Positions 4,659 through 19,826 of a DNA stretch of 32,000 nt are shown one piece after another; within the stretch, counting starts at the first letter, position 1; each line of letters starts with the position of its first letter. The position numbers were made by a program, and so were the translations under genes. The DNA is taken from the NCBI RefSeq assembly GCF_001598795.1, contig NZ_BCZP01000005.1, forward strand, positions 150,001 to 182,000. Reading direction: 5' to 3'. The notes under the pieces were generated by a model, which was given only the letters and a program-made list of their open reading frames with translations, did not search any database and was not told the origin of the DNA. Source of the stretch: Delftia acidovorans NBRC 14950. Its GTDB lineage: Bacteria > Pseudomonadota > Gammaproteobacteria > Burkholderiales > Burkholderiaceae_C.

Positions 4659-5398
4659 TGGACACCGTGGCCGCTCCCGCGGACCTCTTCGATGCCGAGC
4701 ACCAGGCCCTTTTGGCGGCCCGCGCCGCCCACGACCGGGGCGAAGAAGCCGGCGCCCAGGCCTGCCACCAGGCCCTGGGCGTGCTGCTGACCGCCTATGA
4801 GCGCCTGCTGCGCGAAACGCGCCGGCTGGTGCGCCGCAGCGACCGGGCCGAGCTGGAGATGACCCAGCTCAACCAGCGCCTGCAGGACCTGGCCGGCGAG
4901 CTGGAATACCGCGCCACGCACGACCCGCTGACCGGCGTGCTCAACCGCGCGGCCATCATCGAGCGCGTGAACCGCCACTTCACCCAGCAGGGGCTGGCCC
5001 TGATCGTGCTGGACATAGACCACTTCAAGCGCGTGAACGACAGCTTCGGCCACCCCGTGGGCGACAGCGTGATCCTGGGCGTGGTGCGCTGCCTCAAGGC
5101 CGCCGTGCCGGCCACCGCCCACATCGGCCGCGTGGGCGGCGAGGAATTCACCGTGCTGCTGCCCCAGCACGACAGCGACGGCGCCGTGTGCGTGGCCGAG
5201 CAGGTGCGCGCCGCCATCGAGGCCCATCCCTTTGGCCTGCCCGACGCCAGCTGCATCACGGCCAGCTTCGGCGTGAGCTGGCGCCCGAGCGGCGGCCGCT
5301 TCGACGACGCCTACAGCCTGGCCGACGAGGCGCTGTACGCCGCCAAGCGCAGCGGGCGCAACCAGGTCGTGCGCGCGGCAGACCATGCCACGGCCTGA
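4658..5398 (+). CDS. siaD: GGDEF diguanylate cyclase with N-terminal coiled-coil stalk (SiaD-like)
   Basis: The ATG at 4658 shares one base with the upstream TGA (TGATG). Motifs: HDPLTGVLNR, DIDHFKRVNDSFGHPVGD and an intact GGEEF. There is no RxxD five residues upstream of GGEEF (the sequence is ATAHIGRVGGEEF), so no canonical I-site. Confidence 0.9.
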   Translation: MDTVAAPADLFDAEHQALLAARAAHDRGEEAGAQACHQALGVLLTAYERLLRETRRLVRRSDRAELEMTQLNQRLQDLAGELEYRATHDPLTGVLNRAAIIERVNRHFTQQGLALIVLDIDHFKRVNDSFGHPVGDSVILGVVRCLKAAVPATAHIGRVGGEEFTVLLPQHDSDGAVCVAEQVRAAIEAHPFGLPDASCITASFGVSWRPSGGRFDDAYSLADEALYAAKRSGRNQVVRAADHATA

Positions 5399-5426
5399 GC
5401 GGCGCGGACACAGACAGGGCTGAGGC

Positions 5427-7685
5427 ATGAGTTTCGTGATGCGCGCACGGGCGCCCAGGGCGCCCGCCCCTGCTTCCGCCCTCCTGCAGCCGGCTCTGCA
5501 GCCGCCCCCGCCATCGCCCGTGCCCGGGCCTGAATGGCGGGTGCTGATCGTGGACAGCGACCCCGACGTACACGCCGCCTTCCGCCTGGCGCTGGAAGGC
5601 CACAGCCTGTTCGGCCGGCCGCTGGTGTTCCTCTACGCCCGCTCCGGCACACAGGCGCGCAATCTGCTGCGCAGCGAGCAGGACCTGGCCGTGGTGGTGC
5701 TCGACGCCGTGACCGACGGCACGGGCGCCGGCCTGGACCTGGTGGACTTCATCCGCTACACGGCCGGCCTGCGCAACAGCCGCATCGTGCTGCGCACCGG
5801 CCGCCCGGGCCAGGCGCCCGATCTGGAAACCCTGCTGCGCTACGACATCAACGACTGCCGCACCAAGACCGAACTCACGCCCGACCGGCTGCTGGCCATC
5901 GTGGTGACCGCCGTGCGCTCCTACGAGCAGCTGTGCGCCATCGAGGCCAACCGCCGCAGCCTGGAGCTGATGGTGCGCTCCAGCGCCTCGCTGCTGGAGG
6001 AAACCAATCTGCACGCCTTCGCGCGGGGCGTGATCACCCAGCTGGCCACCTTGCTGGGCGTGGCCAGCGAAGGCCTGGTCTGCTCGGAGGGAACGCACCC
6101 GGCCGAGCCCTACCGCGTGCTCGCAGCCACGGGACCATTCGCCCGGCTCATCGACCAGCCCATCGCCACCGTGCTGGCCTCGCGCGGGCTGCGCCTGCTG
6201 CGCCAGGCGCTGCAGGCGCGGCGCAACATCTACGGCGTGCAGCGCGGCGTGGCGCTGTACATCGGCCGGGGCGACGAGCAGGACATGGCCGTCTTCATCG
6301 ACGCACCGGCCTCGCACAGCGCACTGGACCGCCAGCTGCTCGAAGTCTTCTGCGCCAACCTGCGCACGCTGCTGCACAACCGCGGCCTGCTGGAGCGCCT
6401 GCACCAGTCCGCCTACTTCGACCCGCTGGTCTGCCTGCCCAATCGCGCCCACTTCGTGGAAAAAGTGGACGAATGCGTGTGGCGCGGCACGCGTGACCAT
6501 GTGCTGGCCCTGGTGGACATCGACGACTTCAGCGCCACCAACGACGTGATGGGCCACCGCTTTGGCGACCGCCTGCTCGAAGCCATGGCCCGCCGCCTGG
6601 CCAGCGCGCTGCCCGCAGGCGTGCTGCTGGCGCGCGTGGGATCGGACACCTTCGGCATCCTGGGCCCCACCGACGAGGTGGCCCTGGCCCAGTTGCTGGA
6701 CTGCGCCCGCCAGCCGCTGGCCGTGGACGGCGTGCCGCACAAGGTCTCGCTGACCTGCGGCTACGTGTACCTGCCCCATGAGCGCCAGGCCGGCACCGAC
6801 CTGGTCAAGGACGCCACCATCGCCCTCAAGCGCGCCAAGCGCGATCACCGCGGCCAGCTGCTGGAGTACTCCGAGCAGATGGGCATGGAGGCGCGCGACC
6901 GCGCCCTGCTGCTGTCCGACCTGCGCGCTGCCATCGACGGCGCCCAGCTTTTCCTGGTCTACCAGCCCCAGGTGGACCTGGAAACCCATGCCCTGGTCGG
7001 CCTGGAGGCCCTGCTGCGCTGGCGCCGGCAGGACGGCAGCTTCGTGCCGCCCGACCGCTTCATTCCGGTGGCCGAACATTCGGGCCTCATCGTGCCGCTG
7101 GGCCAATGGGTGCTGGCCACGGCCTGCCGCACCATGCGCGAACTGCTGGACGCCGGCCGCGCCCCCAGGCGCATGGCCGTCAATGTCTCCACCGTGCAGC
7201 TGCAGGACCCGGGCTTTCTGCAGACCGTGAGCAACGCCCTGGCAGAGCACGGCCTGCAGGGCGCGCAGCTGGAGCTGGAGATCACCGAATCCGTCGCGGT
7301 CCTGCCCACCCAGCTGCTGCAGGCCACGCTCAGCGCCCTGCGCTCCCTGGGCGTGACCATTGCCATCGACGACTTCGGCACCGGCTATTCCTCGCTGAGC
7401 TACCTGGAGCGCCTGCCGCTGGACCGCATCAAGATCGACCGCAGCTTCGTGCGCCAGCTTGGCGAATCACAGGAAGCGCGCATCGCCGAAATGATCGCCC
7501 AGCTGGGCCGCAAGCTCGGCCTGCAGGTCCTGGCCGAAGGCATAGAGGACGCCAGCGCCTGGCAGGCCCTGCGCGCCATGGGCTGCCAGGAGGGACAGGG
7601 CTATCACGTTGCCCGGCCCATGGACAAGGAGCAGTTGCTGGGCTGGCTGCACCGGCGCACCGGAGTGAATGGCGCGCCGGAGTGA
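5427..7685 (+). CDS. REC-like / DUF3369 / degenerate GGDEF / EAL c-di-GMP phosphodiesterase
   Basis: 752 aa. The receiver-like N-terminus reads RVLIVDSDPDV...VVVLDAVTDG...IVLRTGRPG...DINDCRTKTEL. The GGDEF-fold domain has GSDTF in place of GG(D/E)EF. The EAL set is complete: EALLRW, MAVNVS, ELEITES, IAIDDFGTGYSSLSYL, KIDRSFV, LAEGIED and QGYHVARP. Confidence 0.9.
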   Translation: MSFVMRARAPRAPAPASALLQPALQPPPPSPVPGPEWRVLIVDSDPDVHAAFRLALEGHSLFGRPLVFLYARSGTQARNLLRSEQDLAVVVLDAVTDGTGAGLDLVDFIRYTAGLRNSRIVLRTGRPGQAPDLETLLRYDINDCRTKTELTPDRLLAIVVTAVRSYEQLCAIEANRRSLELMVRSSASLLEETNLHAFARGVITQLATLLGVASEGLVCSEGTHPAEPYRVLAATGPFARLIDQPIATVLASRGLRLLRQALQARRNIYGVQRGVALYIGRGDEQDMAVFIDAPASHSALDRQLLEVFCANLRTLLHNRGLLERLHQSAYFDPLVCLPNRAHFVEKVDECVWRGTRDHVLALVDIDDFSATNDVMGHRFGDRLLEAMARRLASALPAGVLLARVGSDTFGILGPTDEVALAQLLDCARQPLAVDGVPHKVSLTCGYVYLPHERQAGTDLVKDATIALKRAKRDHRGQLLEYSEQMGMEARDRALLLSDLRAAIDGAQLFLVYQPQVDLETHALVGLEALLRWRRQDGSFVPPDRFIPVAEHSGLIVPLGQWVLATACRTMRELLDAGRAPRRMAVNVSTVQLQDPGFLQTVSNALAEHGLQGAQLELEITESVAVLPTQLLQATLSALRSLGVTIAIDDFGTGYSSLSYLERLPLDRIKIDRSFVRQLGESQEARIAEMIAQLGRKLGLQVLAEGIEDASAWQALRAMGCQEGQGYHVARPMDKEQLLGWLHRRTGVNGAPE

Positions 7686-7703: not shown

Positions 7704-9227
7704 TCACGGCAGATGGGGCGCTATCACCTCGGCCAGCAGGCCGAAGCTGTGGCGGATCTCCTGCTCCGTCACGGCTCCGTAGCCCAGCACCAGGCCCCGG
7801 GCCGGATCGGGCCTGAGCGAGTACAGGGACAGCGGCCGCGTGAGAACGCCCAGCTTGCGTGCCTGCCGCGCAATGGCGTCATCGTCCGAGCCGGGCGGCA
7901 GGCCCAGCACCAGGTGCAGCCCCGCGTCTCCGCCCTGCACGGTCACCGCCGTGCCCAGGCGCTGGCCTATCTCGTCGATGAGCACGCGCCGGCGCTCGCC
8001 ATAGACCTGGCGCATGCGGCGGATGTGGTTGACGTAGTGGCCCTGCCGCATGAACTGCGCCAGCACGATCTGCTGCATGATCTGCCCCTCCCGGAACAGC
8101 TCGCTCAGCGCGCGCGCAAAGCTGTCGGCCAGGTCGCTGGGCAGCACGAGGTAGGCCAGCCGCAGCGATGGAAACATGGTCTTGGAGAAGGTGCCCAGGT
8201 AGATCACGCGGCCATGCTCGTCCAGGCCCTGCAGCGCCGGCAGCGGGCGCGAGGTGAAGCGGAACTCGCTGTCGTAGTCGTCCTCGACGATCCAGACCCG
8301 CTGGGCCACCGCGTAGTCCAGCAGCTGGCGCCTTCGGCCATGGCCCATGAGCACGCCGCTGGGGTACTGGTGCGAGGGCGAGATGAACATCAGCCGCGGC
8401 GGTGTCTTCAGTTGCTGCGGCGTGGGCGCCAGGCCCTCGCCGTCCAGCGCGATGGGCTGCAGTTGCAGGCCGGCCATGCGGAACACGCTGCGTGCGCCCC
8501 AGTAGCCGGGGTCCTCCAGCCAGACGGTGTCGCCAGGATCGGCCAGCAGCTGGGAAATCAGGTGCAGCGCCTGCTGGGCGCCGCTGGTCACCAGGATCTG
8601 GTCCGCGCTGCAGGCCACGCCGCGCGTGCCCTGCAAGTGCTCGGCAATGGCTTCGCGCAGCGCGGGATGGCCTGCGCCCGTGGCATAGCTCAGTTGCAGC
8701 GGGTTGTGATCGCGCCAGGCCTGGGCGTGCAGGCGGCTCCATAGCGCGGCCGGAAACTGGCGCAGCTCGGGCACGCCCGGCGCGAAGGCGCCCCACTGCA
8801 GGTGGCTGGCCCGCGCCCCGCTCACGATGGCGCTGCCGCGCCGCGACAGCGGCGTGCCACGGCGGCGCGGCAACGGCGGCTGGCTCACGAAGGCCGGCGC
8901 CACCTCGGCCACATAGGTGCCCCGCCCCACGCCGGCCTGCACCAGGCCCTCCAGCGCCAGTTGCTCATAGACCTGGACGATGGTGTTGCGCGCAATGCCC
9001 AGCGTCTGCGCCAGCTCGCGGCTGGTGGGCAGCCGCGAGCCCGCCGGCAGGGCCTTGCGCAGGATGCCTTCCTTGACGATGCGGTAGAGCTGGCGGTGGT
9101 TATACTCGGCATCGCTACGTTGGAAATGCCGATTGACAAAGTCCGGCAGCGTGGCACTTCCAACGCGGGAAATTGGTTCTCTTTTGTTCACGGTATTTGG
9201 TTCTTTTGTTGGGATCAATGTGAACAT
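7704..9227 (-). CDS. MocR/GabR-family PLP-dependent aminotransferase-like transcriptional regulator
   Basis: GntR-type winged helix-turn-helix (SRLPTSRELAQTLGIARNTIVQVYEQLALEGLV) followed by a fold-type-I aminotransferase domain with the PLP-lysine context LGTFSKTMFPSLRLAYLV. The start is uncertain. I chose ATG 9227; GTG 9299 and the in-frame GTG at 9191 (VNKREP...) are alternatives. The first ~45 codons are unusually AT-rich and contain a direct repeat. Confidence 0.85.
   Translation of the reverse strand: MFTLIPTKEPNTVNKREPISRVGSATLPDFVNRHFQRSDAEYNHRQLYRIVKEGILRKALPAGSRLPTSRELAQTLGIARNTIVQVYEQLALEGLVQAGVGRGTYVAEVAPAFVSQPPLPRRRGTPLSRRGSAIVSGARASHLQWGAFAPGVPELRQFPAALWSRLHAQAWRDHNPLQLSYATGAGHPALREAIAEHLQGTRGVACSADQILVTSGAQQALHLISQLLADPGDTVWLEDPGYWGARSVFRMAGLQLQPIALDGEGLAPTPQQLKTPPRLMFISPSHQYPSGVLMGHGRRRQLLDYAVAQRVWIVEDDYDSEFRFTSRPLPALQGLDEHGRVIYLGTFSKTMFPSLRLAYLVLPSDLADSFARALSELFREGQIMQQIVLAQFMRQGHYVNHIRRMRQVYGERRRVLIDEIGQRLGTAVTVQGGDAGLHLVLGLPPGSDDDAIARQARKLGVLTRPLSLYSLRPDPARGLVLGYGAVTEQEIRHSFGLLAEVIAPHLP
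9173..9210. promoter_or_regulatory. direct repeat TTGGTTCT(CT)TTTGTT x2, candidate MocR operator / promoter element
   Basis: TTGGTTCTCTTTTGTT at 9173-9188 and TTGGTTCTTTTGTT at 9197-9210 are identical apart from a 2 nt indel and are offset by 22-24 bp. They lie in the most AT-rich patch of the window, at the 5' end of the MocR ORF. MocR/GabR-type regulators are known to bind direct repeats. A functional role here is inference only. Confidence 0.3.
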
Positions 9228-9423
9228 AGACTCGCCCCCATGTATAGCTATCGAAGGCGTGAAAGCCGAATATTTTTTCAATGATCCGCCTCCAGACACT
9301 TCAAAGACCTGTGCCTTCCGCCCGGTTCCATTCGCCCCTCAGTCAGCCTATGTCCTTGAAGTTGAAAGCTTTTCGTTGCGGCACCCTGCCGGCCCGGCAA
9401 GCCGCCTGCCAGGAGGTGCAGCC

Positions 9424-10296
9424 ATGAGCACAGCCACCACCTTCGGCATCGCCGGCGTCCAGATGGAGGTTTGCGCCTTCGACAGCAACCTGGAGCGCAT
9501 GGCCGGCTACCTGCGCCACATCCGCTCGCGTTTTCCCTGGGTCCGCATGGTGCTGTTCTCCGAGCTGGCGGCGCTGGGCCCCAAGCACGACAGGGCCGAG
9601 CCGCTGCCCGGCCCCACCGAGGACCGGCTGTGCGGGCTGGCCCGGGAAACCGGCCTGTGGCTGATTCCCGGCTCGCTGTTCGAGAGCGTGGCCGGCCCCG
9701 AGGGCACCGTGGTCTACAACACCACGCCCGTCATCAACCCGCAGGGCGAGGTCGTCACGCGTTTTCGCAAGCTCTTCCCCTTCAGGCCCTATGAGCGCGA
9801 TGTGGCCGGCGGCACCGGCTTTTGCGTGTTCGACGTGCCTGGCGCGGGCCGTTTCGGCGTGTCCATCTGCTACGACATGTGGTTTCCAGAAACCACGCGC
9901 ACGCTGGTGGCCATGGGCGCCGAGGTGATCCTGCACCCCACCATGACGGACACCATCGACCGCGATGTGGAGCTGTGCATCGCACGCGCCTCGGCCGTCA
10001 CCAACCAGGTCTATTTCTTCGATGTGAACGGCGTGGGCGACGGCGGCGTGGGCCGCTCCATCATCGTGGACCCCTCGGGCTACGTGCTCCACCAGGCCGA
10101 CAGCGGCGCCCAGATCATGCCCATCGAGGTCGACTTCGCCCGGCTGCGGCACGAGCGCGAACACGGCCTGCGCAGCAACCTGGGCCAGCCGCTCAAGAGC
10201 TTCCGCGACCGCGACTGCGATTTCACCGTCTACCGCAAGGACGGCACCGACTTCCCCTACCTGCACAGCCTGGGAGCACTGGACAAGCCCCAATGA
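9424..10296 (+). CDS. carbon-nitrogen hydrolase (nitrilase-superfamily amidase)
   Basis: The ATG at 9424 is preceded by AGGAGG. The 290 aa product carries the Glu-Lys-Cys triad contexts LFSELA, RFRKLFPF and VSICYDMWFPE. The longer ORF 9133..10296 is an artefactual 5' extension. Confidence 0.85.
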   Translation: MSTATTFGIAGVQMEVCAFDSNLERMAGYLRHIRSRFPWVRMVLFSELAALGPKHDRAEPLPGPTEDRLCGLARETGLWLIPGSLFESVAGPEGTVVYNTTPVINPQGEVVTRFRKLFPFRPYERDVAGGTGFCVFDVPGAGRFGVSICYDMWFPETTRTLVAMGAEVILHPTMTDTIDRDVELCIARASAVTNQVYFFDVNGVGDGGVGRSIIVDPSGYVLHQADSGAQIMPIEVDFARLRHEREHGLRSNLGQPLKSFRDRDCDFTVYRKDGTDFPYLHSLGALDKPQ

Positions 10297-10387
10297 CCTG
10301 ACACGCCCCTTTTCCCAGCGATCGACATCACGAGCACCACAAAGCCGCAAGCCACCGGGCGATGCGGCAAAAAACCAGGAGACAACG

Positions 10388-13291
10388 ATGACATCCCGCC
10401 CCCCGACCGAAACGCGCGCCCGTGCCTCCCTCAGCCGCCACCGCAGCGTCTGGGAAATGCGTGCCGATGGCTGGATCAGCCTGGTGGACGATCTCAGCCG
10501 GCTGGCCATCCTGGCGCCCGAGCACCTCGAGCGTGCCAGCCGCCTGGCCCATGTGCAGACCATCATCGACGCGCTGGCCCCGGTCGAAAGCTACTGGGCC
10601 TTTCCCGGGGGCCGGGTCTTCGGTGAGCTGTGCCAGTGGATAGAGCGCGAGGAGCTGGCGCGCGCGCACCAGGCGGCGCGGCGCATCCACCGCGTGCTGG
10701 CTGCGCGCACCTACCGCCATGACGCCAACACGCTGGACAACGACAACGAACTGCCCTCGCAGATAGAGACCGACAGCGAGCGCCAGGCGCAGCTGACGCG
10801 GCCTTACTTCGAGGTGCTGATCGTCGACGAGATGTCGGCCAGCGAGGAAGACGCGCTGCGCCGCCGCGTGCAGCGCAAGCGCAGCGCCGACGATGATTTC
10901 GTGTTCGACATCGTGGTGGTGCCCAGCTTCGAGGACGCGCTGATCGCCACCCTGGTCAACTTCAACCTGCAGGCCGTGGTGATACGCCACGGCTTTCCAT
11001 TCCGCTCGGTCAACAGGAACGGCATGCTGCGCCGCTTCCTGGAAGGCATGGACGACAACAGCGAGGCCATGCCCGAGTTCGAGCGCGGCCCGCTGCTGGG
11101 CCGCCAGATCGCGCAGCTGCGCCCCGAGCTGGATCTGTACCTGGTCACCGATGTCAGCGTCGAGGAGATCGCCGCGCGCGTGGGCGAGGTCTTCAAGCGC
11201 ATCTTCTTCGGCGAGGAAGACCACATCGAGCTGTACAGCGCCATCATGAAAGGCGTGGGCGAGCGCCACAGGACGCCCTTCTTCCACGCGCTGCGCGACT
11301 ACGCCAAGCAGCCCACGGGCGTGTTCCACGCGCTGCCGCTGGCGCGCGGCAAGTCCATCATGAACAGCAACTGGATCGGGGACCTGGCCCAGTTCTACGG
11401 CATGAACCTGTTCATGGCCGAGACCTCGGCCACCTCGGGCGGGCTGGACTCGCTGCTGGACCCCGTGGGCCCGCTCAAGCTGGCCCAGGAGTACGCGGCC
11501 CGCGCCTTCGGTGCCAGGCGCACCTACTTCGCCACCAACGGCACCTCCACCTGCAACAAGATCGTGGTGCAGGCCCTGGTGCGGCCCGACGACATCGTGC
11601 TGGTGGACCGCAACTGCCACAAGTCCCACCACTACGGCCTGGTGCTGGCCGGCGCCCAGGTGGCCTACCTGGACTCCTATCCGCTGGACCAGTACTCCAT
11701 GTACGGCGCCGTGCCGCTGCGCCACATCAAGGAGACCCTGCTGGGCTTTCGGCGCGCGGGCACGCTGGAGCGCGTGCGCATGGTGCTGCTGACCAACTGC
11801 ACCTTCGACGGCATCGTCTACGACGTGGAGCGCGTGATGACGGAATACCTGGCCATCAAGCCCGACCTGGTCTTCCTCTGGGACGAGGCCTGGTTCGCCT
11901 TCGCGCGCTGCCATCCCATCTACCGCCCGCGCACGGCCATGGCCAGCGCCGCCAAGCTGTGCGAGACCTTCAAGGACCCGGCCTACGCCAGGCGCCACGC
12001 CGAGTTCGCCGCCAGCATCGACTGGGAGGACGACCAGCAGTTGCTGGAGACCCGGCTGATCCCCGACCCCGCCAAGGCCCGGATCCGGGTCTACGCCACG
12101 CATTCCACGCACAAGACGCTGACGGCGCTGCGCCAGGGCTCGATGATCCATATCTGGGACCAGGACTTCAAGGACAAGGCCGAGGAGTCCTTCCACGAGG
12201 CGTACATGACGCACACCTCGACCTCGCCCAACTACCAGATCCTCGCCTCGCTGGACGTGGGCCGCCGCCAGGTGGAGCTGGAGGGCTACGAGCTGATCCA
12301 GCGTCAGCTGGAGCTGGCCATGAGCCTGCGCGAGCAGGTGCTGCACCACCCACTGCTCAAACGCTACTTCCGCTTCCTGCGCATCGGCGACCTGGTGCCG
12401 CTGGCCTACCGCGAGTCGGGCGTGGACAACTACTACAACGACGAGACGGGCTGGGACAACCTGGAGGTGGCATGGCGCAGCGACGAGTTCGTGCTCGACC
12501 CCAGCCGCGCCACCCTGGTCATCGGCACCACGGGCATGGACGGCGACACCTTCAAGAACAAGGAGTTGATGGACAGGTACGGCATCCAGATCAACAAGAC
12601 CTCGCGCAACACCGTGCTCTTCATGACCAACATCGGCAGCACGCGCTCGGCCATCGCCTACCTGATCGAGGTGCTGATCAAGATTGCCCGCGACGTGGAC
12701 GCCCGCGTGGCCGACCTGAGCGCCATCGAGCGGCGCATCCATGAAAGGCGCGTGCGCTCGCTCACGCTGGAGCAGCCGCCGCTGCCCAATTTCTCCAGCT
12801 TCCACTTCGCCTTCCGGGGCCGCAGCGTCGAAGGCCGCGCAGGCACGCGCGACGGCGACATCCGCAGCGCCTTCTTCCTCTCGTACGACGACACCAACTG
12901 CGAATACATCGACATGGCCGAGGCCGCGTGCGCCATCGCCGAGGGGCGCGAGCTGGTGTCCGCGCTCTTCGTCATCCCCTACCCGCCGGGCTTTCCCATC
13001 CTCGTGCCCGGGCAGGTGATCAGCGCCGAGATCCTGCAGTTCATGGCTGCGCTCGATGTGCGCGAGATCCACGGCTTCCGGCCCGAGCTGGGCTTTCGCA
13101 TCTTCAGCCGGGCCGCGCTGGACCGCGCCGCCCAGGCCACGGCCGCGCGCGCCGCGCTGGCGCTGTCGGGCCGCGCGGCGCAGCCGCAGGCGGGCGACGA
13201 AGGCCTGGGCCTGGTCCGACCCGAGCCCGAACCTGAACTGATCACGCTTTCCCCCACCCCGAAGAAGACCACGACGAGGAGCAAGAAGTGA
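10388..13291 (+). CDS. oversized Orn/Lys/Arg-type (fold type I) PLP-dependent decarboxylase with wing domain, N-terminal extension and low-complexity tail
   Basis: 967 aa, with AGGAGA upstream of the ATG. It has a CheY-like wing (YFEVLIVDEMSASEED...VVIRHGFPF), TPFFHALRDYAKQP, NGTSTCNKIVVQAL and the PLP-lysine motif THSTHKTLTALRQGSMIH. The C-terminus AAQPQAGDEGLGLVRPEPEPELITLSPTPKKTTTRSKK is low complexity. Substrate cannot be called from sequence. Confidence 0.85.
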   Translation: MTSRPPTETRARASLSRHRSVWEMRADGWISLVDDLSRLAILAPEHLERASRLAHVQTIIDALAPVESYWAFPGGRVFGELCQWIEREELARAHQAARRIHRVLAARTYRHDANTLDNDNELPSQIETDSERQAQLTRPYFEVLIVDEMSASEEDALRRRVQRKRSADDDFVFDIVVVPSFEDALIATLVNFNLQAVVIRHGFPFRSVNRNGMLRRFLEGMDDNSEAMPEFERGPLLGRQIAQLRPELDLYLVTDVSVEEIAARVGEVFKRIFFGEEDHIELYSAIMKGVGERHRTPFFHALRDYAKQPTGVFHALPLARGKSIMNSNWIGDLAQFYGMNLFMAETSATSGGLDSLLDPVGPLKLAQEYAARAFGARRTYFATNGTSTCNKIVVQALVRPDDIVLVDRNCHKSHHYGLVLAGAQVAYLDSYPLDQYSMYGAVPLRHIKETLLGFRRAGTLERVRMVLLTNCTFDGIVYDVERVMTEYLAIKPDLVFLWDEAWFAFARCHPIYRPRTAMASAAKLCETFKDPAYARRHAEFAASIDWEDDQQLLETRLIPDPAKARIRVYATHSTHKTLTALRQGSMIHIWDQDFKDKAEESFHEAYMTHTSTSPNYQILASLDVGRRQVELEGYELIQRQLELAMSLREQVLHHPLLKRYFRFLRIGDLVPLAYRESGVDNYYNDETGWDNLEVAWRSDEFVLDPSRATLVIGTTGMDGDTFKNKELMDRYGIQINKTSRNTVLFMTNIGSTRSAIAYLIEVLIKIARDVDARVADLSAIERRIHERRVRSLTLEQPPLPNFSSFHFAFRGRSVEGRAGTRDGDIRSAFFLSYDDTNCEYIDMAEAACAIAEGRELVSALFVIPYPPGFPILVPGQVISAEILQFMAALDVREIHGFRPELGFRIFSRAALDRAAQATAARAALALSGRAAQPQAGDEGLGLVRPEPEPELITLSPTPKKTTTRSKK

Positions 13292-14745
13292 ACAACAAAG
13301 TCAAAAGCGTTGCCGACCTGCTGCTGATGTTCCACCGCAACGAGCGGCCCATCTACTTCATCAGCGCCACCAACTTCAACCTGCTGGGCATGGACCGCTG
13401 GGTCAACCGCTTCCGCTACATCAACTACATCGACTGCTTCGACGGCCGCCACCCCAACGCTTTCGTGCCGCAGGAGCTGCCGCACGAGCCCTTCGAGTCC
13501 ATCGAGGACATCAACAACTATCTGCTGCAGCACAAGGACGTGGTGGACCTGATCGAGCGGCGCGGCGGCAAGCCGGTCGCCACCTTCCTGATGTTCGACG
13601 AGAAGACCGAGGCCCTGGCCCGGGAGCTGGGCATGGAGGTCTGGTTTCCGCCAGCCGCGCTGCGCCAGCGCTGCGACAACAAGATGGAGACCGTGCGCAT
13701 AGGCAACAAGGCCGGCGTCTACTCGGTGCCCAACGCGCTGGAGAAGGTGGACAGCTACGAGCACCTGATGCAGATCGCCGAACGCCACGGCCTGGGCAAG
13801 GACCTGGTGGTGCAGTCGGCCTTCGGCGACTCGGGCCACACCACCTTCTTCATCGCCTCGCGCGAGGACTTCGACAAGCACAAGGACGAGATCGTCAACG
13901 ACCCCGAGGTCAAGATCATGAAGCGCATCAACTGCCGCGGCGCCACGCTGGAGGCCTGCGCCACCCAGTCGGGCACCCTGGTCGGGCCGCTGCTGACCGA
14001 GGTGGTGGGCGCGCGCGAACTCACGCCCTACAAGGGCGGCTGGTGCGGCAACGAGGTGTTCCCGGGCGCCTTCTCCGAGGAGGTGCGCGCCAGGGCGCGC
14101 GACATGGCTGAGCGCTTCGGCAACCAGTTGCTGGCCGAGGGCTACCGCGGCTACTTCGACCTGGACTTCCTGATCGACACCGACACCGGCGAGGTCTACC
14201 TGGGCGAGCTGAACCCGCGCATCTGCGGCGCCAGCCCCATGACCAACCATGCCGCCTTCGCCTACGCCGATGCGCCGCTGTTCCTGTTCCACCTGCTCGA
14301 ATTCTCGGGCGTGCCGTTCGACCTGAACGTCAAGGAGATCAACGAGCGCTGGGCCCAGCCGCATTTCATCGACTCCTGGTCTCAGGTGGTGCTCAAGTTC
14401 AACGAGGACCGCATCGACCAGGTCACGCATGCTCCGGCCACCGGCATCTACCGCATGGGCGAGGACGGCAGCGTCGCCTACCAGCGCTTCGACTACAACC
14501 GCAAGGCCATAGACACCGAGCGCGAGGCCTTCTTCCTGCGCATCACCGGCCCCGGCGACTACCGCTACGAGGGCGCCGACCTGGGCATCCTGATCACGCG
14601 CGGCCGCTCGATGGACGACAACTTCAAGCTCAACATCCGGGCGCGCGACTGGATACGCGGCATCAAGAACTACTACGCAGGCAAGCCCGTCCTGGCCACC
14701 CAGCCCGGCGCAGCACCGGCGCCGGGCTCGTTCAAGATCCTCTGA
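13288..14745 (+). CDS. ATP-grasp domain ligase (uncharacterised subfamily)
   Basis: 485 aa. The GTG start overlaps the decarboxylase stop (GTGA at 13288-13291). ATP-grasp signatures: LVVQSAFGDSGHTTFFI and GYFDLDFLIDTDTGEVYLGELNPRICGAS (the E-x-N Mg/ATP motif). Codon bias is clean. Confidence 0.8.
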   Translation: MNNKVKSVADLLLMFHRNERPIYFISATNFNLLGMDRWVNRFRYINYIDCFDGRHPNAFVPQELPHEPFESIEDINNYLLQHKDVVDLIERRGGKPVATFLMFDEKTEALARELGMEVWFPPAALRQRCDNKMETVRIGNKAGVYSVPNALEKVDSYEHLMQIAERHGLGKDLVVQSAFGDSGHTTFFIASREDFDKHKDEIVNDPEVKIMKRINCRGATLEACATQSGTLVGPLLTEVVGARELTPYKGGWCGNEVFPGAFSEEVRARARDMAERFGNQLLAEGYRGYFDLDFLIDTDTGEVYLGELNPRICGASPMTNHAAFAYADAPLFLFHLLEFSGVPFDLNVKEINERWAQPHFIDSWSQVVLKFNEDRIDQVTHAPATGIYRMGEDGSVAYQRFDYNRKAIDTEREAFFLRITGPGDYRYEGADLGILITRGRSMDDNFKLNIRARDWIRGIKNYYAGKPVLATQPGAAPAPGSFKIL

Positions 14746-14755
14746 AGGCAATCCC

Positions 14756-15766
14756 ATGCCCTTGTCCATGCCTTCCCGCATCCGCTTCCAGGCCATCGCC
14801 GAAGACCTGCCCGGCCGGAAATGGCAGGCCCTGTGCGAGCAGGCCTGGCCCTACTACCGGGCCTGGTTCCTGCGCCAGGGCGCGGTGGCGCGCGCCGGCT
14901 TCCTGGAGTGCCGCCGCGCCCTGCGCCAGCACATGCCGGAACTGGTGCCTACCTGGGAGCGGCTGGTGGAGCTGGCCGGCGGCGGCGACATCGAGGCGCG
15001 CTTCCTGTCGCTGTGGTGCCCGCCGCCCTACATCACCGGCTGCTCCCAGGCCGTCTGGCTCGATGCGGTGGGCCAGCAGGAACCCATGCTGCTGCGCAAC
15101 TACGACTTCGCGCCCGCGCTGCTGGAGGGCCACTGGCTGGCCACGCGCTGGAGCGGGCAGCGCGTGGCCGCCATGGGCGACTGCCTGTGGGGCGCACTGG
15201 ACGGCATGAACGAGTCGGGCCTGGCCGCCTCGCTGTCCTTCGGCGGCCGCACGGCCCATGGCGACGGCTTCGGCATTCCGCTGGTGCTGCGCTATGTGCT
15301 GGAGATTGCGCAGGACACCGCATCGGCCGTGGCCATCCTGCAGCGCGTGCCCGTGCACATGTGCTACAGCGTCACGCTGCTGGACGCCCGGGGCGAATGG
15401 GCCACGGTGTTCCTGAACCCCGACCGCCCCGTGGAAGTGACCCGGCGCCGGGCCGTGACCAACTTCCAGCACACGGTGGAATGGCCCGAGCATGCACGCG
15501 CCACCAGCGCCTGCGAGCGGCTGGCCGCCCTGCAGCAGCAGATCGAAGCCGGCACGCCGGCCAGCGACACGCAGGCCGCGCTGCTGCGCGAGCCCCTGTA
15601 CCAGCCCGCCTGGCGGCGCGGATACGGAACGCTGTACACGGCCGCCTATGCGCCAGGAGCAGGCCGCATCGAGCTGTCGTGGCCGGGCCAGACCTGGCTC
15701 CAGAGCCTGCACGCCTTCGAGGAAGGCCAGCGCGAAATCGCCTACCCGGGCCAGCGCCCGCCGTGA
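14756..15766 (+). CDS. C45-family Ntn hydrolase / acyl-CoA:6-aminopenicillanic-acid acyltransferase-like protein
   Basis: 336 aa, starting 10 bp after the ATP-grasp stop. YITGCSQAVW offers the Gly-Cys autoprocessing and nucleophile site typical of peptidase family C45. The LLRNYDF and GMNESGLA segments fit the family as I remember it. Confidence 0.7.
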   Translation: MPLSMPSRIRFQAIAEDLPGRKWQALCEQAWPYYRAWFLRQGAVARAGFLECRRALRQHMPELVPTWERLVELAGGGDIEARFLSLWCPPPYITGCSQAVWLDAVGQQEPMLLRNYDFAPALLEGHWLATRWSGQRVAAMGDCLWGALDGMNESGLAASLSFGGRTAHGDGFGIPLVLRYVLEIAQDTASAVAILQRVPVHMCYSVTLLDARGEWATVFLNPDRPVEVTRRRAVTNFQHTVEWPEHARATSACERLAALQQQIEAGTPASDTQAALLREPLYQPAWRRGYGTLYTAAYAPGAGRIELSWPGQTWLQSLHAFEEGQREIAYPGQRPP

Positions 15767-15812
15767 GCGGACCCCGCGCGCCAGGCCCCTGCATGCGCCG
15801 GCGCAGGTCCAG

Positions 15813-15870
15813 CCTCTTGCCTCTTGCCTCTTGCCTCTTGCCTCTTGCCTCTTGCCTCTTGCCTCTTGCC
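15813..15870. repeat. perfect heptanucleotide tandem repeat (CCTCTTG) x8 plus CC
   Basis: Counted directly. The units are 15813-19, 20-26, 27-33, 34-40, 41-47, 48-54, 55-61 and 62-68, then CC. The repeat is intergenic, 47 bp after the C45 stop and 36 bp before the symporter ATG. Confidence 0.97.
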
Positions 15871-15905
15871 ACACATACACGACGACTACCAAAGGAGACA
15901 TGGAA

Positions 15906-17222
15906 ATGACAAGAAAACTTCCGCCCGCCATCTGGATTCTGGTTGCCATGGTGCTGGGCATCGTGATCGGCTACATGGTGTTCATCAACTTTCCCGACAA
16001 GAAGGCGGCCGCGCAGATCGCGGGCTACATCTCCATCATGTCGGACGTGTTCCTGCGGCTGATCAAGATGCTGATCGGCCCGCTGGTGTTCTCCACGCTG
16101 GTGGTGGGCATCGCGCACATGGGCGATGCGGCCTCGGTGGGCCGGGTGTTCCTCAAGGCCATGGGCTGGTTCGTCACCGCCTCGCTGGTGTCGCTGGTCA
16201 TGGGCCTGGTCCTGGCCAACGTGCTGCAGCCGGGCCACAACCTGGGGCTGCCGCTGCCGGACATCGGCGCTTCGGCCAACCTCGCCACCGCCAAGTTCAC
16301 GCTCAAGGACTTCGTCAGCCACCTGGTGCCCAAGTCCTTTGCCGAGGCCATGGCCAACAACGAGATCCTGCAGATCGTGGTGTTCTCCATGTTCTTCGGC
16401 GTGGCCCTGGCCGCGCTCGGTGAAAAGGGCAGGACGCTGGTGGCCGCCATCGACGAGCTGTCCCACGTCATGCTCAAGATCACCGGCTATGTGATGAAGC
16501 TCGCGCCGCTGGCCGTGCTGGCGGCCATGGCGGCCACCGTGTCGGTCAACGGCCTGGAGATCCTGCTGAAGTTCGCCGTCTTCATGGGGGACTTCTACCT
16601 GGGCCTGTTTCTGCTGTGGGGCGTGCTGGTGATCGCCGGTTTCCTGTTCCTGGGCCCGCGCATCTTCAGGCTGCTGGTGCTGATCAAGGAGGCCTTCATG
16701 CTGTCGTTCGCCACCGCCAGCTCCGAGGCCGCCTACCCCAAGATCCTGGACGCGCTGGACCGCTTCGGCGTCAAGCGCAAGATCTCCAGCTTCGTGATGC
16801 CCATGGGCTACTCGTTCAACCTCGACGGCTCCATGATGTACTGCACCTTCGCCGTGCTGCTCATCGCCCAGGCCTACGACATCCACCTGTCGCTGGGCAC
16901 GCAGATCACCATGCTGCTGATCCTGATGCTGACCTCCAAGGGCATGGCCGGCGTGCCGCGCGCCTCGCTGGTGGTGATCGCCGCCACGCTCAACCAGTTC
17001 AACATCCCCGAGGCCGGCCTGCTGCTCATCCTGGGCGTGGACACCTTCCTGGACATGGGCCGCTCGGCCACCAACGCCGTGGGCAACTCCATCGCCACCG
17101 CCGTCGTCGCCAAGTGGGAGGGCGACCTGCTGCCCGAGACCGAAGCCGCCGCCAACGCCGCACGGCTGGATTCGGAGGCCAGGGCCGCGCTGGCCCATCC
17201 CGCCTCCCCGGCCCATTCCTGA
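15906..17222 (+). CDS. dicarboxylate/amino acid:cation symporter (DctA/GltP, DAACS family)
   Basis: MTRKLPPAIWILVAMVLGIVIGY... with the family motifs SFATASSEAAYP, MPMGYSFNLDGS, LTSKGMAGVPRASL and GRSATNAVGNSIATAVVAKWEG. The AAGGAG RBS lies 8 nt upstream of ATG 15906. ATG 15900 is too close to that RBS. The rest of ORF 15492..17222 is a spurious extension through the repeat. Confidence 0.9.
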   Translation: MTRKLPPAIWILVAMVLGIVIGYMVFINFPDKKAAAQIAGYISIMSDVFLRLIKMLIGPLVFSTLVVGIAHMGDAASVGRVFLKAMGWFVTASLVSLVMGLVLANVLQPGHNLGLPLPDIGASANLATAKFTLKDFVSHLVPKSFAEAMANNEILQIVVFSMFFGVALAALGEKGRTLVAAIDELSHVMLKITGYVMKLAPLAVLAAMAATVSVNGLEILLKFAVFMGDFYLGLFLLWGVLVIAGFLFLGPRIFRLLVLIKEAFMLSFATASSEAAYPKILDALDRFGVKRKISSFVMPMGYSFNLDGSMMYCTFAVLLIAQAYDIHLSLGTQITMLLILMLTSKGMAGVPRASLVVIAATLNQFNIPEAGLLLILGVDTFLDMGRSATNAVGNSIATAVVAKWEGDLLPETEAAANAARLDSEARAALAHPASPAHS

Positions 17223-17243: not shown

Positions 17244-18275
17244 ATGAAACCCGAACCCAGATCACGGCCCGGGCAGCCATGGGCGCTGCGGGGACCGGCG
17301 CGGGTGGCAGCGGCAGCGGGCGTGGCGGCCCTTGCGCTGCTGGCCACCACGGCCGGCGCCCAGGAAGCCGACACGCCAGAGCGCACCGCCGCCAGCCTCG
17401 CGCCCGCCACGCTCAGCGGCACGCTGGCCAAGGTGCGCGCCAGCGGCTCCATTGCGCTGGGCTACCGCCAGGCCTCGGTGCCGTTTTCCTACCTGAACGC
17501 GCGCAACGAGCCTATCGGCTACTCCATCGAGCTGTGCAAGGCGCTGGTGACCAGCATCGAGGATGCGGTCAACAGGAGCCTGGCCATCCGCTGGGTGCCC
17601 GTCACGGCCGACAACCGCGTGGACGCCGTGGCCAACGGCCAGGTGGACCTGGAATGCGGCTCCACCACCAGCAACCTGGAGCGCCAAAAGCGCGTGGCCT
17701 TCTCGCCCATCATGTTCGTGGCCGGCACCAAGGTCATGGTCCGGCAGGACGCGCGGATCCGCTCCTTGCGCGACCTGGCCAGCAAGAAGGTGGCGGTGAC
17801 GGCCGGCACCACCAATGAAAAAGCCATGCGCGACCTGGACCGGAAATTTCACCTGGGCATGCAGCTGCAGGTGGTGCCCGACCACTCCCAGGGCTTTGCC
17901 CAGGTGGCCGGCGGCCAGTCCGACGCCTTCGCCACCGACGACGTTCTGCTGTACGGCCTGATCGCGGAGAACGCCGGCAAGGCGGATGGCAACGGCGGCA
18001 CGGGCGCGAGCACGGACGCGAGCCCGGGCGCCAGGTTCCAGGTGGTGGGCGACTACCTCTCCTACGACCCCTACGCCATCATGTTCCGCAAGGACGACCC
18101 CCAGCTGGCCCAGGTGGTGAGGAGCAGCTTCCAGGCGCTGGCCGAGGACGGCGAGATCGAGCGCCAGTACAGGCGCTGGTTCCTGCGCCGCCTGCCCTCG
18201 GGCACCAGCCTGGACCTGCCGATGAGCGCCCAGTTGCAGACCCTCATCGAGACCATGGCCGTCCAACCCCGTTGA
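17244..18275 (+). CDS. periplasmic amino-acid ABC-type substrate-binding protein (GltI-like), orphan
   Basis: 343 aa with a signal-like N-terminus (AAAGVAALALLATTAGAQE). Family 3 solute-binding-protein pattern: IALGYRQASVPFSY...GYSIELCKAL...VDLECGSTTSNLERQK...FATDDVLLYGL. There is a low-complexity insert, ENAGKADGNGGTGASTDASPGARF. No permease or ATPase genes are adjacent. Confidence 0.8.
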   Translation: MKPEPRSRPGQPWALRGPARVAAAAGVAALALLATTAGAQEADTPERTAASLAPATLSGTLAKVRASGSIALGYRQASVPFSYLNARNEPIGYSIELCKALVTSIEDAVNRSLAIRWVPVTADNRVDAVANGQVDLECGSTTSNLERQKRVAFSPIMFVAGTKVMVRQDARIRSLRDLASKKVAVTAGTTNEKAMRDLDRKFHLGMQLQVVPDHSQGFAQVAGGQSDAFATDDVLLYGLIAENAGKADGNGGTGASTDASPGARFQVVGDYLSYDPYAIMFRKDDPQLAQVVRSSFQALAEDGEIERQYRRWFLRRLPSGTSLDLPMSAQLQTLIETMAVQPR

Positions 18276-18395
18276 GGCGGTTACTGCCTGCACCCATTGC
18301 ACGCCGGATGGCGCCTCGCCTGGCCTCGCTCTGCGCACGGCATGCAGCACGCGGGTCGCGCCCACTTTGCAACAGCAAATACAAGGAGACAAGAA

Positions 18396-19826
18396 ATGAG
18401 TCAGCAACTCGAAGGTGGGCTGAAGCCGCGGCACCTCACCATGCTATCCATTGCGGGGGTGATCGGCGGTGCGCTGTTCGTCGGCTCCGGCAAGGTGATT
18501 GCCAGTGCCGGCCCCGCAGCCATCCTGGCGTACATGGGCGGGGGCATCCTGGTGGTGCTGGTCATGCGCATGCTGGGCGAGATGGCCGTGGCGCAGCCTG
18601 ACAGCGGCTCGTTCTCCACCTACGCAGACCGCGCCATCGGGCGCTGGGCCGGCTTCACGATCGGCTGGCTGTACTGGTGCTTCTGGACACTGCTGATGGG
18701 CTGGGAGGCCTATGTGGCCGGGGCCATCCTCAACGCCTGGATGCCGGCCGTTCCCATCTGGGGCTACATGCTGGTGGTGGTCTTCGGCCTGATGGCCGTC
18801 AACTTCTTGCCGGTGCACAACTATGGCGAGTTCGAGTTCTGGTTCGCTCTGATCAAGGTCGTGGCCATTGTGCTGTTCATCGCCATCGGAGCGCTGGCCA
18901 TCGCCAGGCTCTGGCCTGCGGGCGATGTCGCAGGCATGGCGCACCTGACCAGCAAGGGCTTCATGCCCAACGGCCCCGGCGCCGTGGTGGTGGCGCTGCT
19001 GGGCGCGATGTTCGCCTTCATCGGGGCCGAGATCGTCACCGTGGCGGCGGCCGAATCCCGGGACCCGGGCAAGGAAATCGTGCGGACCACCCGGTCCGTG
19101 GTCTGGCGCATTTCGCTGTTCTACGTGGGCTCCATCTTCATCGTGGTCTGCCTGATTCCGTACGACACCCCGGGCCTGATCCTCTCCACCGAAGGCACCT
19201 ATGCCGTCGCGCTCAAGCACCTGGGCATTCCCTTCGCCGGCCAGATCGTCAACTTCGTGGTGCTGACTTCCGTGTGCAGTTGCTTCAACTCGGCGCTCTA
19301 CACCTCCAGCCGCATGCTGTTCTCGCTGGCGCGCCGCGGCGACGCCCCCCGAATGTTCACGACCCTGGGCCGCAGCACCAGCGCGCCCTACATGGCCGTC
19401 ATCGCCTCCAGCGCCCTGGCCCTGCTGACGGTCGCCCTCACCGCCACCGGCCAGATGGACGTGTTCGATGTGCTCATGGCCGCGACCGGCTCCATCGCGC
19501 TGCTGGTGTACCTGTGCATCGCCGTGTCGCAGTTGCACATGCGCCGCAAGCTCGAAGCCAGCGGCACGCCCATCCGCCTGAAGATGTGGTGCTTCCCGGC
19601 GCTGACCTACGCCACCATCTTCTTCATCGTCGCCTCCATGGTGGTCATGGTGGCCGAGGGCACCTACCGCAAGGAAGTGCTCTACACCAGCGTGCTGGGC
19701 GGTGCATTGGTCGCCCTGGGCATGCTGGCGCAAAAGCTCCACTGGGGCCGCCCGAAACCCGGCCGCGTGGAACAGGAGCAGGCCGTTCAGGAAGGCCTGG
19801 GTCCGTTGATCGTCAAACCCGAATAA
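18396..19826 (+). CDS. gabP: APC-family amino acid permease, GabP-like (GABA/omega-amino acid permease type)
   Basis: The ATG at 18396 is preceded by AAGGAGA. GGLKPRHLTMLSIAGVIGGALFVGSG...SGSFSTYADRAIGRWAGFTIGWLYW...NYGEFEFWFALIKV...GAEIVTVAAAES closely tracks E. coli GabP as I remember it. Substrate is not proven. Confidence 0.8.
   Translation: MSQQLEGGLKPRHLTMLSIAGVIGGALFVGSGKVIASAGPAAILAYMGGGILVVLVMRMLGEMAVAQPDSGSFSTYADRAIGRWAGFTIGWLYWCFWTLLMGWEAYVAGAILNAWMPAVPIWGYMLVVVFGLMAVNFLPVHNYGEFEFWFALIKVVAIVLFIAIGALAIARLWPAGDVAGMAHLTSKGFMPNGPGAVVVALLGAMFAFIGAEIVTVAAAESRDPGKEIVRTTRSVVWRISLFYVGSIFIVVCLIPYDTPGLILSTEGTYAVALKHLGIPFAGQIVNFVVLTSVCSCFNSALYTSSRMLFSLARRGDAPRMFTTLGRSTSAPYMAVIASSALALLTVALTATGQMDVFDVLMAATGSIALLVYLCIAVSQLHMRRKLEASGTPIRLKMWCFPALTYATIFFIVASMVVMVAEGTYRKEVLYTSVLGGALVALGMLAQKLHWGRPKPGRVEQEQAVQEGLGPLIVKPE

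Follow-up and report, generated by a model that had tools for sequence, protein, structure and literature searches.

What metabolic task could unite a nitrilase-superfamily CN-hydrolase, a long pyridoxal phosphate (PLP)-dependent decarboxylase, an ATP-grasp ligase and a Peptidase-C45 cysteine hydrolase in a single operon? The question is raised by a 32,000-nucleotide stretch of Delftia acidovorans NBRC 14950 (contig NZ_BCZP01000005.1, positions 150,001 to 182,000; hereafter the window, with positions counted from its first letter), in which genes for these four enzymes lie between 9424 and 15766 and diverge from a MocR-type regulator gene. A first-pass annotation, made from the sequence alone, had proposed an uncharacterised amine or amide pathway. 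Taken together, the evidence set out below makes it on balance probable that the locus is an operon centred on γ-aminobutyric acid (GABA), with a core module that would make, conjugate and release this compound.

The four plus-strand open reading frames were confirmed, and their third-codon-position G+C is that of coding sequence. The gaps of 91, −4 and 10 bp and the divergent regulator described in the first-pass annotation were likewise all borne out by the reading frames and by Pfam. At the −4 junction between the decarboxylase and ATP-grasp genes the sequence reads GAGGAG-N6-GTGA, with a Shine-Dalgarno sequence ahead of a start codon that overlaps the stop, and the translational coupling suggested earlier is therefore plausible. 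The co-directional run continues past the C45 gene (15766) through the gene for AspA (21259). No convincing terminator, that is, a G+C-rich hairpin followed by a T run, was found between the genes up to 21259, the promoter and terminator scan being uninformative, and an Rfam scan of the whole window returned nothing.

The product of the decarboxylase can be predicted from its closest characterised relative. Residues 24-930 align with residues 25-917 of the Mycobacterium tuberculosis (Mtb) Rv2531c structure 9n0n_A in a single alignment (E 1.7e-258; PDB sequence search, which also returned 9n0o), and the protein matches Pfam OKR_DC_1 at 241 bits. The size, the extra N-terminus and the THSTHKTL and FHALPLARGKS motifs to which the first-pass annotation drew attention are all present. 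Judged by the alignment, the large size and FHALPLARGKS are traits of the Rv2531c family and not peculiar to the D. acidovorans protein: the roughly 135 extra N-terminal residues correspond to the four-helix-bundle N-terminal domain seen in the cryoEM structure of Rv2531c (PMC12329521), and the counterpart of FHALPLARGKS in Rv2531c is FHALPVARGAS. Furthermore, H411, K412, the PLP-binding lysine K576, R582, T612 and N736 are invariant in the window decarboxylase and 47 orthologues (n = 48). H411/K412, T612, R582 and N736 match H405/K406, T606, R576 and N731 of Rv2531c, which have been implicated in PLP, α-carboxylate or substrate binding (PMC13506015). The position equivalent to R718 of Rv2531c is an invariant lysine in the 48 sequences (K723 in the window protein).

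Rv2531c is a Mg2+-dependent, cooperative L-glutamate decarboxylase that feeds the GABA shunt and supplies most of the GABA in Mtb (PMC13506015, PNAS 2026), and sequences from Burkholderia, Acinetobacter and Rhizobium fall into its isofunctional cluster in a sequence similarity network (PMC13506015). By homology, the window decarboxylase is probably an L-glutamate decarboxylase forming GABA. The first-pass annotation had named acidic amino acids, or the omega-amino products made from them, as feedstock, and membership of this family supports that suggestion.

The same data bear on a polyamine-type pathway, in which the decarboxylase would act on ornithine, lysine or arginine and the ATP-grasp enzyme would acylate a diamine, in the style of glutathionylspermidine or γ-glutamyl-polyamine synthesis. 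While the OKR_DC_1 match and hits, far below cutoff, to the LdcC, AdiA and SpeF models would accommodate such chemistry, all NCBIfam cutoffs for ornithine, lysine and arginine decarboxylases are missed widely (LdcC, 205 versus 968; AdiA, 181 versus 1167). In addition, lysine, ornithine and arginine are not substrates of Rv2531c (PMC13506015), and relatives have gabT and gabD as neighbours rather than genes of polyamine metabolism. A polyamine-type pathway is scarcely credible on this evidence, and the corresponding chemistry and the polyamine and glutathionylspermidine analogies of the first-pass annotation are abandoned.

The ATP-grasp protein passes the NCBIfam equivalog model NF005096, named 'biotin carboxylase', over residues 3-477 (789.5 bits against a cutoff of 684) and contains the ELNPR motif noted earlier; its only Pfam match is CPSase_L_D2, at 17 bits and below the cutoff of 19.8. 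Over its full length it shares 48% identity (E 1e-164) with MCV7300379.1 of M. barrassiae (P0373), which passes the NF005096 cutoff as well, as do two further relatives (P0121 and P0124). MCV7300379.1 is in turn listed as a BLASTP homologue of Mtb Rv1722 (E 2.8e-168) in Table S1 of a recent preprint (bioRxiv 10.64898/2026.04.15.718621). In that table the '% id' column reads 95-100 for nearly all species despite differing E-values and so resembles query coverage; the similarity of MCV7300379.1 to Rv1722 can therefore be given only as 50% identity or more, the cutoff named in the preprint. The Mtb complex was absent among the best 120 matches listed for each of two protein searches seeded with actinobacterial homologues.

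Rv1722 (GabtS) has been identified as a GABA-trehalose synthetase, which uses ATP to join the carboxylate of GABA to the 6'-OH of trehalose; the enzyme had been annotated as a 'possible (biotin) carboxylase', and ester formation was called non-canonical for an ATP-grasp protein (10.64898/2026.04.15.718621). Homology therefore suggests that the window ATP-grasp is probably an Rv1722-family ligase that attaches GABA to an acceptor. This would reverse the direction of ligation proposed in the first-pass annotation, where a carboxylate was placed onto the amine: Rv1722 activates the carboxylate of GABA itself and esterifies a sugar hydroxyl. The analogy drawn there with carnosine synthase was apt, because in that enzyme, too, it is the carboxylate of β-alanine or GABA that is activated.

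An AlphaFold2 model of the ligase has the ATP-grasp fold (predicted local distance difference test, pLDDT, 92.7 with a 37-sequence alignment; 47 with 11 close homologues). Biotin carboxylase domains and PurK are the nearest solved structures, whether compared by sequence profile or with Foldseek, and they raise the question as to whether the database name might be correct, such that the protein would be a true bicarbonate-dependent carboxylase acting on an amine or ureido substrate, with the hydrolases processing carbamoyl or carboxy intermediates. Weak CPSase_L_D2 matches in 33 of 37 family members and the presence of N-carbamoyl amidases in the CN-hydrolase superfamily would be in keeping with this. 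However, the structural similarity is remote (12-15% identity, TM-score ~0.6) and the Pfam score is below cutoff; no biotin-carrier or carboxyltransferase gene was found among the conserved neighbour clusters of 80 loci; and the assayed homologue, Rv1722, is a ligase for which ATP, GABA and trehalose suffice. A carboxylase role is thus very improbable, and the name 'biotin carboxylase', which has spread widely through the family, is probably wrong. Relatives of the ligase comprise more than 7,000 sequence clusters at E ≤1e-5; at 50% clustering, 343 representatives lie below E 1e-30. Pfam scans of N-terminally extended family members revealed no informative domain fusions.

Do the four genes belong together outside D. 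acidovorans? A scan of one genome per species yielded 189 loci. The window proteins and representatives of the neighbour clusters were mapped onto the 80 best of these, and presence was counted in the 50 proteobacterial loci with full flanks. The C45 gene is present in all 50, the CN-hydrolase in 43, the long decarboxylase in 36, a gabD-like gene in 29, gabT in 27 and a divergent MocR gene in 23. C45 lies directly downstream of the ATP-grasp gene in 71 of the 74 loci with enough sequence, and the decarboxylase directly upstream of it in 47 of 66, while the 4-nt overlap of decarboxylase and ATP-grasp genes recurs in 13 loci and is seen also in L089. In Beta- and Gammaproteobacteria the usual arrangement is a divergent MocR gene followed, in the opposite direction, by gabT, gabD, CN-hydrolase, decarboxylase, ATP-grasp and C45, after which a carrier and a binding protein may come. 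The gabT and gabD products of these operons pass TIGR00700 and TIGR01780, respectively, and in the window's closest relatives, which share this arrangement (L001-L007, at ~3300-6200), the two genes lie between the MocR gene and the CN-hydrolase.

The set is kept even where its order is shuffled, as in Variibacter (decarboxylase, ATP-grasp, C45, CN-hydrolase) and Accumulibacter, and the triad of decarboxylase, ATP-grasp and C45 is still found in two metagenomic lineages, one of them of low G+C, where the ATP-grasp identity has fallen to 60% and 40%. The four genes form a conserved functional unit, and the first-pass annotation, which had treated them as one, is upheld in this respect, as it is in its family assignments by the Pfam and NCBIfam profile searches. 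Within the unit the ligase is the most constrained member: its identity to the window protein in related loci is 72-95%, versus 51-78% for C45 and 45-87% for the CN-hydrolase, and 199 of its 485 positions are invariant in 70 sequences. This conservation may stem from protein-protein contacts or from recent horizontal spread.

The loci without the decarboxylase are informative in their own right, as another GABA-forming route is often present there, and at least one GABA-route gene was found in 44 of the 50 full loci, the exceptions being one Acinetobacter locus and five Aquitalea species. In all, the ATP-grasp/hydrolase pair adjoins three distinct routes to GABA. The first is the Rv2531c-type decarboxylase, which gabT and gabD may or may not accompany. 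The second occurs in Alphaproteobacteria (Shinella, Labrys and others), where the neighbours are a 5-guanidino-2-oxopentanoate decarboxylase (NF005712, 772 against a cutoff of 500), an aldehyde dehydrogenase, a D-amino-acid dehydrogenase (438 against 383) and a racemase-arginase-family fusion. In the arginine transaminase/dehydrogenase pathway of Pseudomonas, arginine is converted via 2-ketoarginine and 4-guanidinobutyrate to GABA and urea, and by their family assignments the alphaproteobacterial neighbours encode this route from arginine to GABA. The third is that of Arthrobacter, where the ATP-grasp gene follows genes for a flavin amine oxidase and a CN-hydrolase, with a fold-III ornithine/arginine decarboxylase nearby; this suggests a predicted route from putrescine through 4-aminobutanal to GABA. 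The variety of these GABA-forming neighbours points to GABA as the substrate of the ligase, independently of the biochemistry of Rv1722.

Two of these arrangements merit description. The alphaproteobacterial variant, in which ATP-grasp and C45 lie within the arginine-route genes, is represented by L066 (6923-15699; also L072-L076 and L079), and the 613-residue fusion encoded in L066, which combines ornithine-racemase-like and arginase-family domains, looks uncharacterised. In Aquitalea (L053, 550-12488), the CN-hydrolase, ATP-grasp and C45 trio lies directly downstream of kdpA, kdpB, kdpC and kdpD, which serve osmosensitive potassium uptake; L054-L056 and L058 share the neighbouring clusters of L053, and these loci have no decarboxylase or gab genes. 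The adjacency to kdp may reflect a link to potassium-glutamate or osmotic adaptation, or may be mere adjacency within one genus.

If the ligase makes a GABA conjugate, the hydrolase encoded beside it becomes the natural candidate for breaking it down. The C45 protein scores 95 bits against Pfam AAT (cutoff 23) and 171 against NF040521 (cutoff 85); Cys96 is kept in at least 97% of 56 aligned sequences, and a smaller alignment of nine sequences shows no variation at Gly95 or Cys96. Its nearest PDB profile match is choloylglycine hydrolase, at E 0.03, and there is no close solved structure. The CN-hydrolase scores 110 bits against PF00795 (cutoff 23), and its E47, K116 and C149 are kept in at least 97% of 42 sequences; it passes no NCBIfam equivalog cutoff, the best being formamidase (70 versus 406), with AguB at 68 versus 410. 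The Glu-Lys-Cys and Gly-Cys hydrolases recognised in the first-pass annotation are therefore sound assignments, and the conservation of their catalytic residues suggests that both enzymes are likely active. The C45 protein is predicted to be a self-processing Gly-Cys N-terminal-nucleophile (Ntn) hydrolase or acyltransferase. A precedent for its action on omega-amino-acid conjugates is the insect enzyme Tan, a Gly-Cys self-processing C45 protein that hydrolyses N-β-alanyl amines (PMC10194958).

The partner of the ligase is not always a C45 enzyme. Three actinobacterial genera, represented by M. barrassiae, Arthrobacter and a strain of Dermatophilaceae, instead have a gene for a β-lactamase-fold serine hydrolase after the ATP-grasp gene (9678-10877 in L087, 9620-10783 in L091 and 9814-11016 in L092); the M. 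barrassiae and Arthrobacter proteins, the only two compared, are 70% identical. In Mtb, the locus tag next to Rv1722 is Rv1723, an uncharacterised SXXK hydrolase and poor β-lactamase, and the actinobacterial partner is probably its counterpart and a candidate GABA-trehalose esterase. Replacement of one partner by a non-orthologous hydrolase suggests that the partner's job is to cleave the ligase product or to transfer from it. Two proteins were set aside in this comparison: a 333-residue protein encoded upstream of the M. barrassiae ATP-grasp gene is not a C45 enzyme, and the product of a β-lactamase-family gene in the window itself (22439-23707) is only remotely related to the actinobacterial partner hydrolase (31% over 179 residues) and was not counted in the system.

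These elements can be assembled into a putative GABA conjugation cycle. Glutamate would be imported, probably by the DctA/GltP-type carrier encoded downstream, and would be converted to GABA by the long-form PLP decarboxylase. From homology and genomic context, the ATP-grasp ligase would then activate the carboxylate of GABA as an acyl phosphate and join it to an acceptor, and C45, given its obligatory pairing with the ligase and the chemistry of its family, would recover GABA by hydrolysing the conjugate or would transfer its 4-aminobutanoyl group. The CN-hydrolase would act as an accessory amidase. The MocR-type PLP-sensing regulator would control the set; gabT and gabD, which share the operon in most relatives, would drain GABA to succinate; and in the window AspA and the carriers would connect the module to central metabolism. 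The purpose of such a cycle might be the buffering or storage of GABA under stress. A broader claim is put forward more tentatively, with less than even confidence: that many Proteobacteria and at least two metagenomic lineages carry a complete, hitherto unrecognised one-operon GABA-conjugate cycle, in which C45 and Rv1723-type hydrolases are the missing breakdown enzymes, and of which the Mtb genes are remnants.

Several observations weigh against this scheme. The link between the window ligase and Rv1722 is transitive, running through the single intermediate MCV7300379.1, and at ~48% identity to the mycobacterial clade the acceptor specificity may well differ from that of Rv1722. The remotest ATP-grasp relatives, at ~30% identity and under the NF005096 cutoff (L084, 8001-9449, and L085, 4858-6273), have no decarboxylase, C45 or β-lactamase-fold partner, so that the functional assignment does not extend to the whole superfamily; a 970-residue repeat-rich protein encoded upstream of the most distant of them (P0270) was considered and is not a decarboxylase. 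The decarboxylase is missing from 14 of the 50 fully flanked loci, and the ligase/C45 pair can therefore do without it. For glutamate, the K0.5 of Rv2531c is ~0.5 M (PMC13506015), so some family members may prefer a substrate other than free glutamate, and this high value may leave room for another preferred substrate or for activation by a partner. In the window, gabT and gabD are cleanly missing at 9228-9423, and the GabP-like permease and AspA genes are appended downstream instead. The MocR protein fails the NCBIfam GabR model (314 versus a cutoff of 600) and passes the PdxR model instead. No evidence gives the CN-hydrolase, here a predicted accessory amidase, a role in the cycle. Finally, no trehalose-metabolism gene is conserved in the related clusters, and C45 enzymes are known as amide hydrolases or acyltransferases, not as esterases, so that an amide product would suit their chemistry better than a sugar ester would.

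The last two points raise the possibility that the logic of the cycle is correct but its product is an amide, with the carboxylate of GABA joined to an amine or amino acid to give a homocarnosine-like pseudodipeptide or a 4-aminobutanoyl-amine, and with C45, and possibly the CN-hydrolase, as the matching amidases. Both hydrolases come from amide-cleaving families, which makes an amide a serious alternative to the trehalose ester. Tan, moreover, cleaves β-alanyl amides; canonical ATP-grasp ligases form amides, the ester formation of Rv1722 being the non-canonical case; and the use of C45 in Proteobacteria and of a serine hydrolase in Actinobacteria could reflect a different bond in each. Conversely, the sole assayed member of the ligase family makes a trehalose ester, and the loci share no conserved gene that might supply the amine. 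An amide product is accordingly held to be somewhat unlikely, while meriting direct consideration alongside the ester.

The regulator and the genes beyond C45 complete the description of the locus, and the coordinates of all features are collected in the table below. The MocR protein combines a GntR helix-turn-helix domain with an aminotransferase fold (Pfam), and its gene probably starts at the ATG at 9227. Its highest raw NCBIfam score is to rhizopine MocR (480, under the cutoff of 650), whereas the PdxR model is passed at 418 against 320.

Features of the window discussed in the text, with family assignments.
Feature	Position	Strand	Assignment and basis
MocR-type regulator, divergent from the operon	7704-9299	-	Pfam GntR + Aminotran_1_2
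CN-hydrolase, 290 aa	9424-10296	+	Nitrilase-superfamily amidase (predicted); Pfam CN_hydrolase
PLP decarboxylase, 967 aa, long-form four-domain	10388-13291	+	Rv2531c family; Pfam OKR_DC_1
ATP-grasp ligase (probable), 485 aa, GTG start	13288-14745	+	NCBIfam NF005096, Rv1722 family
Peptidase-C45 (IAT/Tan-type) Ntn Cys hydrolase/acyltransferase (predicted), 336 aa	14756-15766	+	Pfam AAT, NF040521
Perfect heptanucleotide tandem repeat, GCCTCTT x 8.4	15812-15870	+	Tandem Repeats Finder, 100% matches
DctA/GltP-type dicarboxylate/acidic-amino-acid:cation symporter	15900-17222	+	Pfam SDF 369 bits; NCBIfam DctA, GltP below cutoffs
Periplasmic family-3 solute-binding protein, Glu/Asp-binding-like	17244-18275	+	Pfam SBP_bac_3; closest NCBIfam Glu/Asp ABC binding protein, below cutoff
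GabP-like amino-acid permease	18297-19826	+	Pfam AA_permease 366 bits; TIGR01773 GABA permease 587, just under cutoff 678
Aspartate ammonia-lyase AspA, last co-directional gene	19841-21259	+	Lyase_1 + FumaraseC_C; TIGR00839 703 > 681, NF008909 740 > 510

The carriers encoded downstream are also the point of departure for a catabolic reading of the cluster, in which imported amides would be cleaved by C45 and the CN-hydrolase to release units that are glutamate, derived from glutamine or GABA-containing, the decarboxylase and gabTD would burn these units, and the ATP-grasp enzyme would be ancillary (for example in re-activation or transport-linked trapping). The SDF carrier, the binding protein and the GabP-like permease are indeed co-directional and followed by AspA, MocR-family regulators commonly control catabolic operons, and relatives possess gabT and gabD. 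Yet salvage leaves unexplained why a highly conserved, ATP-consuming ligase, better conserved than C45, should be the invariant core of the cluster, and the ligase/hydrolase pair is also found without any transporter. The salvage interpretation is therefore considered improbable, and the GABA conjugation cycle is retained as the working model.

Within the downstream region, the GCCTCTT repeat lies within the 133 bp that separate the carrier gene's start from the C45 stop, and could be a slipped-strand or regulatory element. The family-3 binding protein comes after a secondary carrier of the SDF family, with no ATP-binding cassette (ABC) permease or ATPase genes nearby; the pairing of carrier and orphan binding protein recurs in related loci, an SDF-carrier homologue following C45 in 11 of the 50 fully flanked loci and the binding protein being present in 18. 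Signalling genes are abundant in the flanks (2365-4188, 5427-7685 and 24972-28067), among them those for a CBS-SpoIIE phosphatase with a DUF6272 partner, for a DUF3369-GGDEF-EAL protein, which lies immediately upstream of the MocR gene, and for a dCache-PAS-GGDEF protein.

Both central enzyme families were characterised very recently, and what is new here is the architecture of the operon and its two hydrolases. Rv2531c, the 'cloaked' glutamate decarboxylase, and Rv1722, the non-canonical ATP-grasp enzyme, were reported in 2026 as isolated surprises, their genes lying far apart in Mtb. The probable translational coupling of the two families in a widespread operon constitutes independent genomic evidence for one shared pathway. 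Neither Rv2531c paper mentions gene neighbourhoods or the ATP-grasp enzyme (PMC13506015, PMC12329521), while the Rv1722 preprint likewise leaves gene neighbourhoods aside, makes no mention of Rv2531c, searched for homologues in Mycobacterium genomes only and leaves the breakdown pathway open (10.64898/2026.04.15.718621). The statement in the first-pass annotation that no characterised pathway corresponds to this locus thus no longer applies to the decarboxylase and ATP-grasp families, which have had characterised members since 2026; it stands for the four-gene composition and for the roles of C45 and the CN-hydrolase, on which, as on PRK06524, nothing was found in the literature searched.

If correct, the cycle of decarboxylase, GABA ligase and C45 'de-GABAylase' or 4-aminobutanoyl transferase, with or without the CN-hydrolase, would imply that the cell makes GABA esters or amides of a new class and uses them to buffer stress or to store carbon and nitrogen. 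Synteny supplies candidates for the degradation step, C45 for Proteobacteria and, for Actinobacteria, the hydrolase of Rv1723 type. The conjugate and its function could be sought in genetically tractable hosts such as Acinetobacter baylyi, Cupriavidus and Variovorax, and the very high K0.5 of Rv2531c could be re-examined with its natural partner present. For Mtb, Rv2531c and Rv1722 would be remnants of such an operon, horizontally acquired together. Veyrier et al. 2009 (PMC3087520) drew up a short, high-confidence 'List A' of genes that reached the ancestor of the slow-growing mycobacteria by horizontal transfer. It includes both Rv1722 and Rv2531, which would fit a joint origin from an operon like the present one.

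Comparison with known systems clarifies what the D. acidovorans locus shares and what it adds. With Rv2531c (PDB 9N0N/9N0O/9N0P; PMC13506015, PMC12329521), the window decarboxylase shares a four-domain architecture of helical N-terminal domain, receiver-like wing, fold-I PLP core and C-terminal domain, as well as the PLP lysine and the glutamate-recognition residues. It differs in having lysine in place of R718, in a low-complexity tail of 35-60 residues and in its setting, as the Mtb gene stands alone whereas that of the window is probably coupled translationally to the ATP-grasp gene in an operon. With Rv1722 (10.64898/2026.04.15.718621), the window ligase shares membership of an ATP-grasp family that has no Pfam model and is annotated 'biotin carboxylase' (NF005096). 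Unlike the mycobacterial clade, to which it is ~48% identical, it is partnered by C45 rather than by a β-lactamase-fold hydrolase, and the gene layout predicts its co-transcription with a GABA-forming enzyme.

The classical GABA shunt and gab operon (GabR-gabT-gabD, GabP) likewise have a divergent MocR-family regulator, and the resemblance extends to the GabP-like permease in the window and to gabT and gabD in most relatives. However, the window itself is without gabT and gabD, its decarboxylase is of the OKR fold-I long form and not of the GadB type, and the CN-hydrolase, ATP-grasp and C45 are three extra enzymes with no place in the classical shunt. Another parallel is the Puu pathway, in which the ATP-dependent ligase PuuA and the Cys amidohydrolase PuuD act on either side of a γ-glutamyl-GABA intermediate; there, too, a ligase is paired with a Cys amidohydrolase around a GABA-containing conjugate. 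Yet PuuA is glutamine-synthetase-like and PuuD class-I amidotransferase-like, glutamylation there protects the amino group, and no decarboxylase takes part.

Finally, insect Ebony and Tan and vertebrate carnosine synthase (CARNS1, itself an ATP-grasp enzyme) similarly rely on ATP-dependent ligation of an omega-amino acid, β-alanine or GABA, through its carboxylate, a reaction that Tan reverses. Ebony differs in resembling a nonribosomal peptide synthetase rather than an ATP-grasp enzyme, and the products of Ebony and CARNS1 are amides of biogenic amines or of histidine. The likeness is one of analogous logic and not of membership: in each case an omega-amino acid is activated at its carboxylate, as is predicted for GABA in the operon of D. 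acidovorans.

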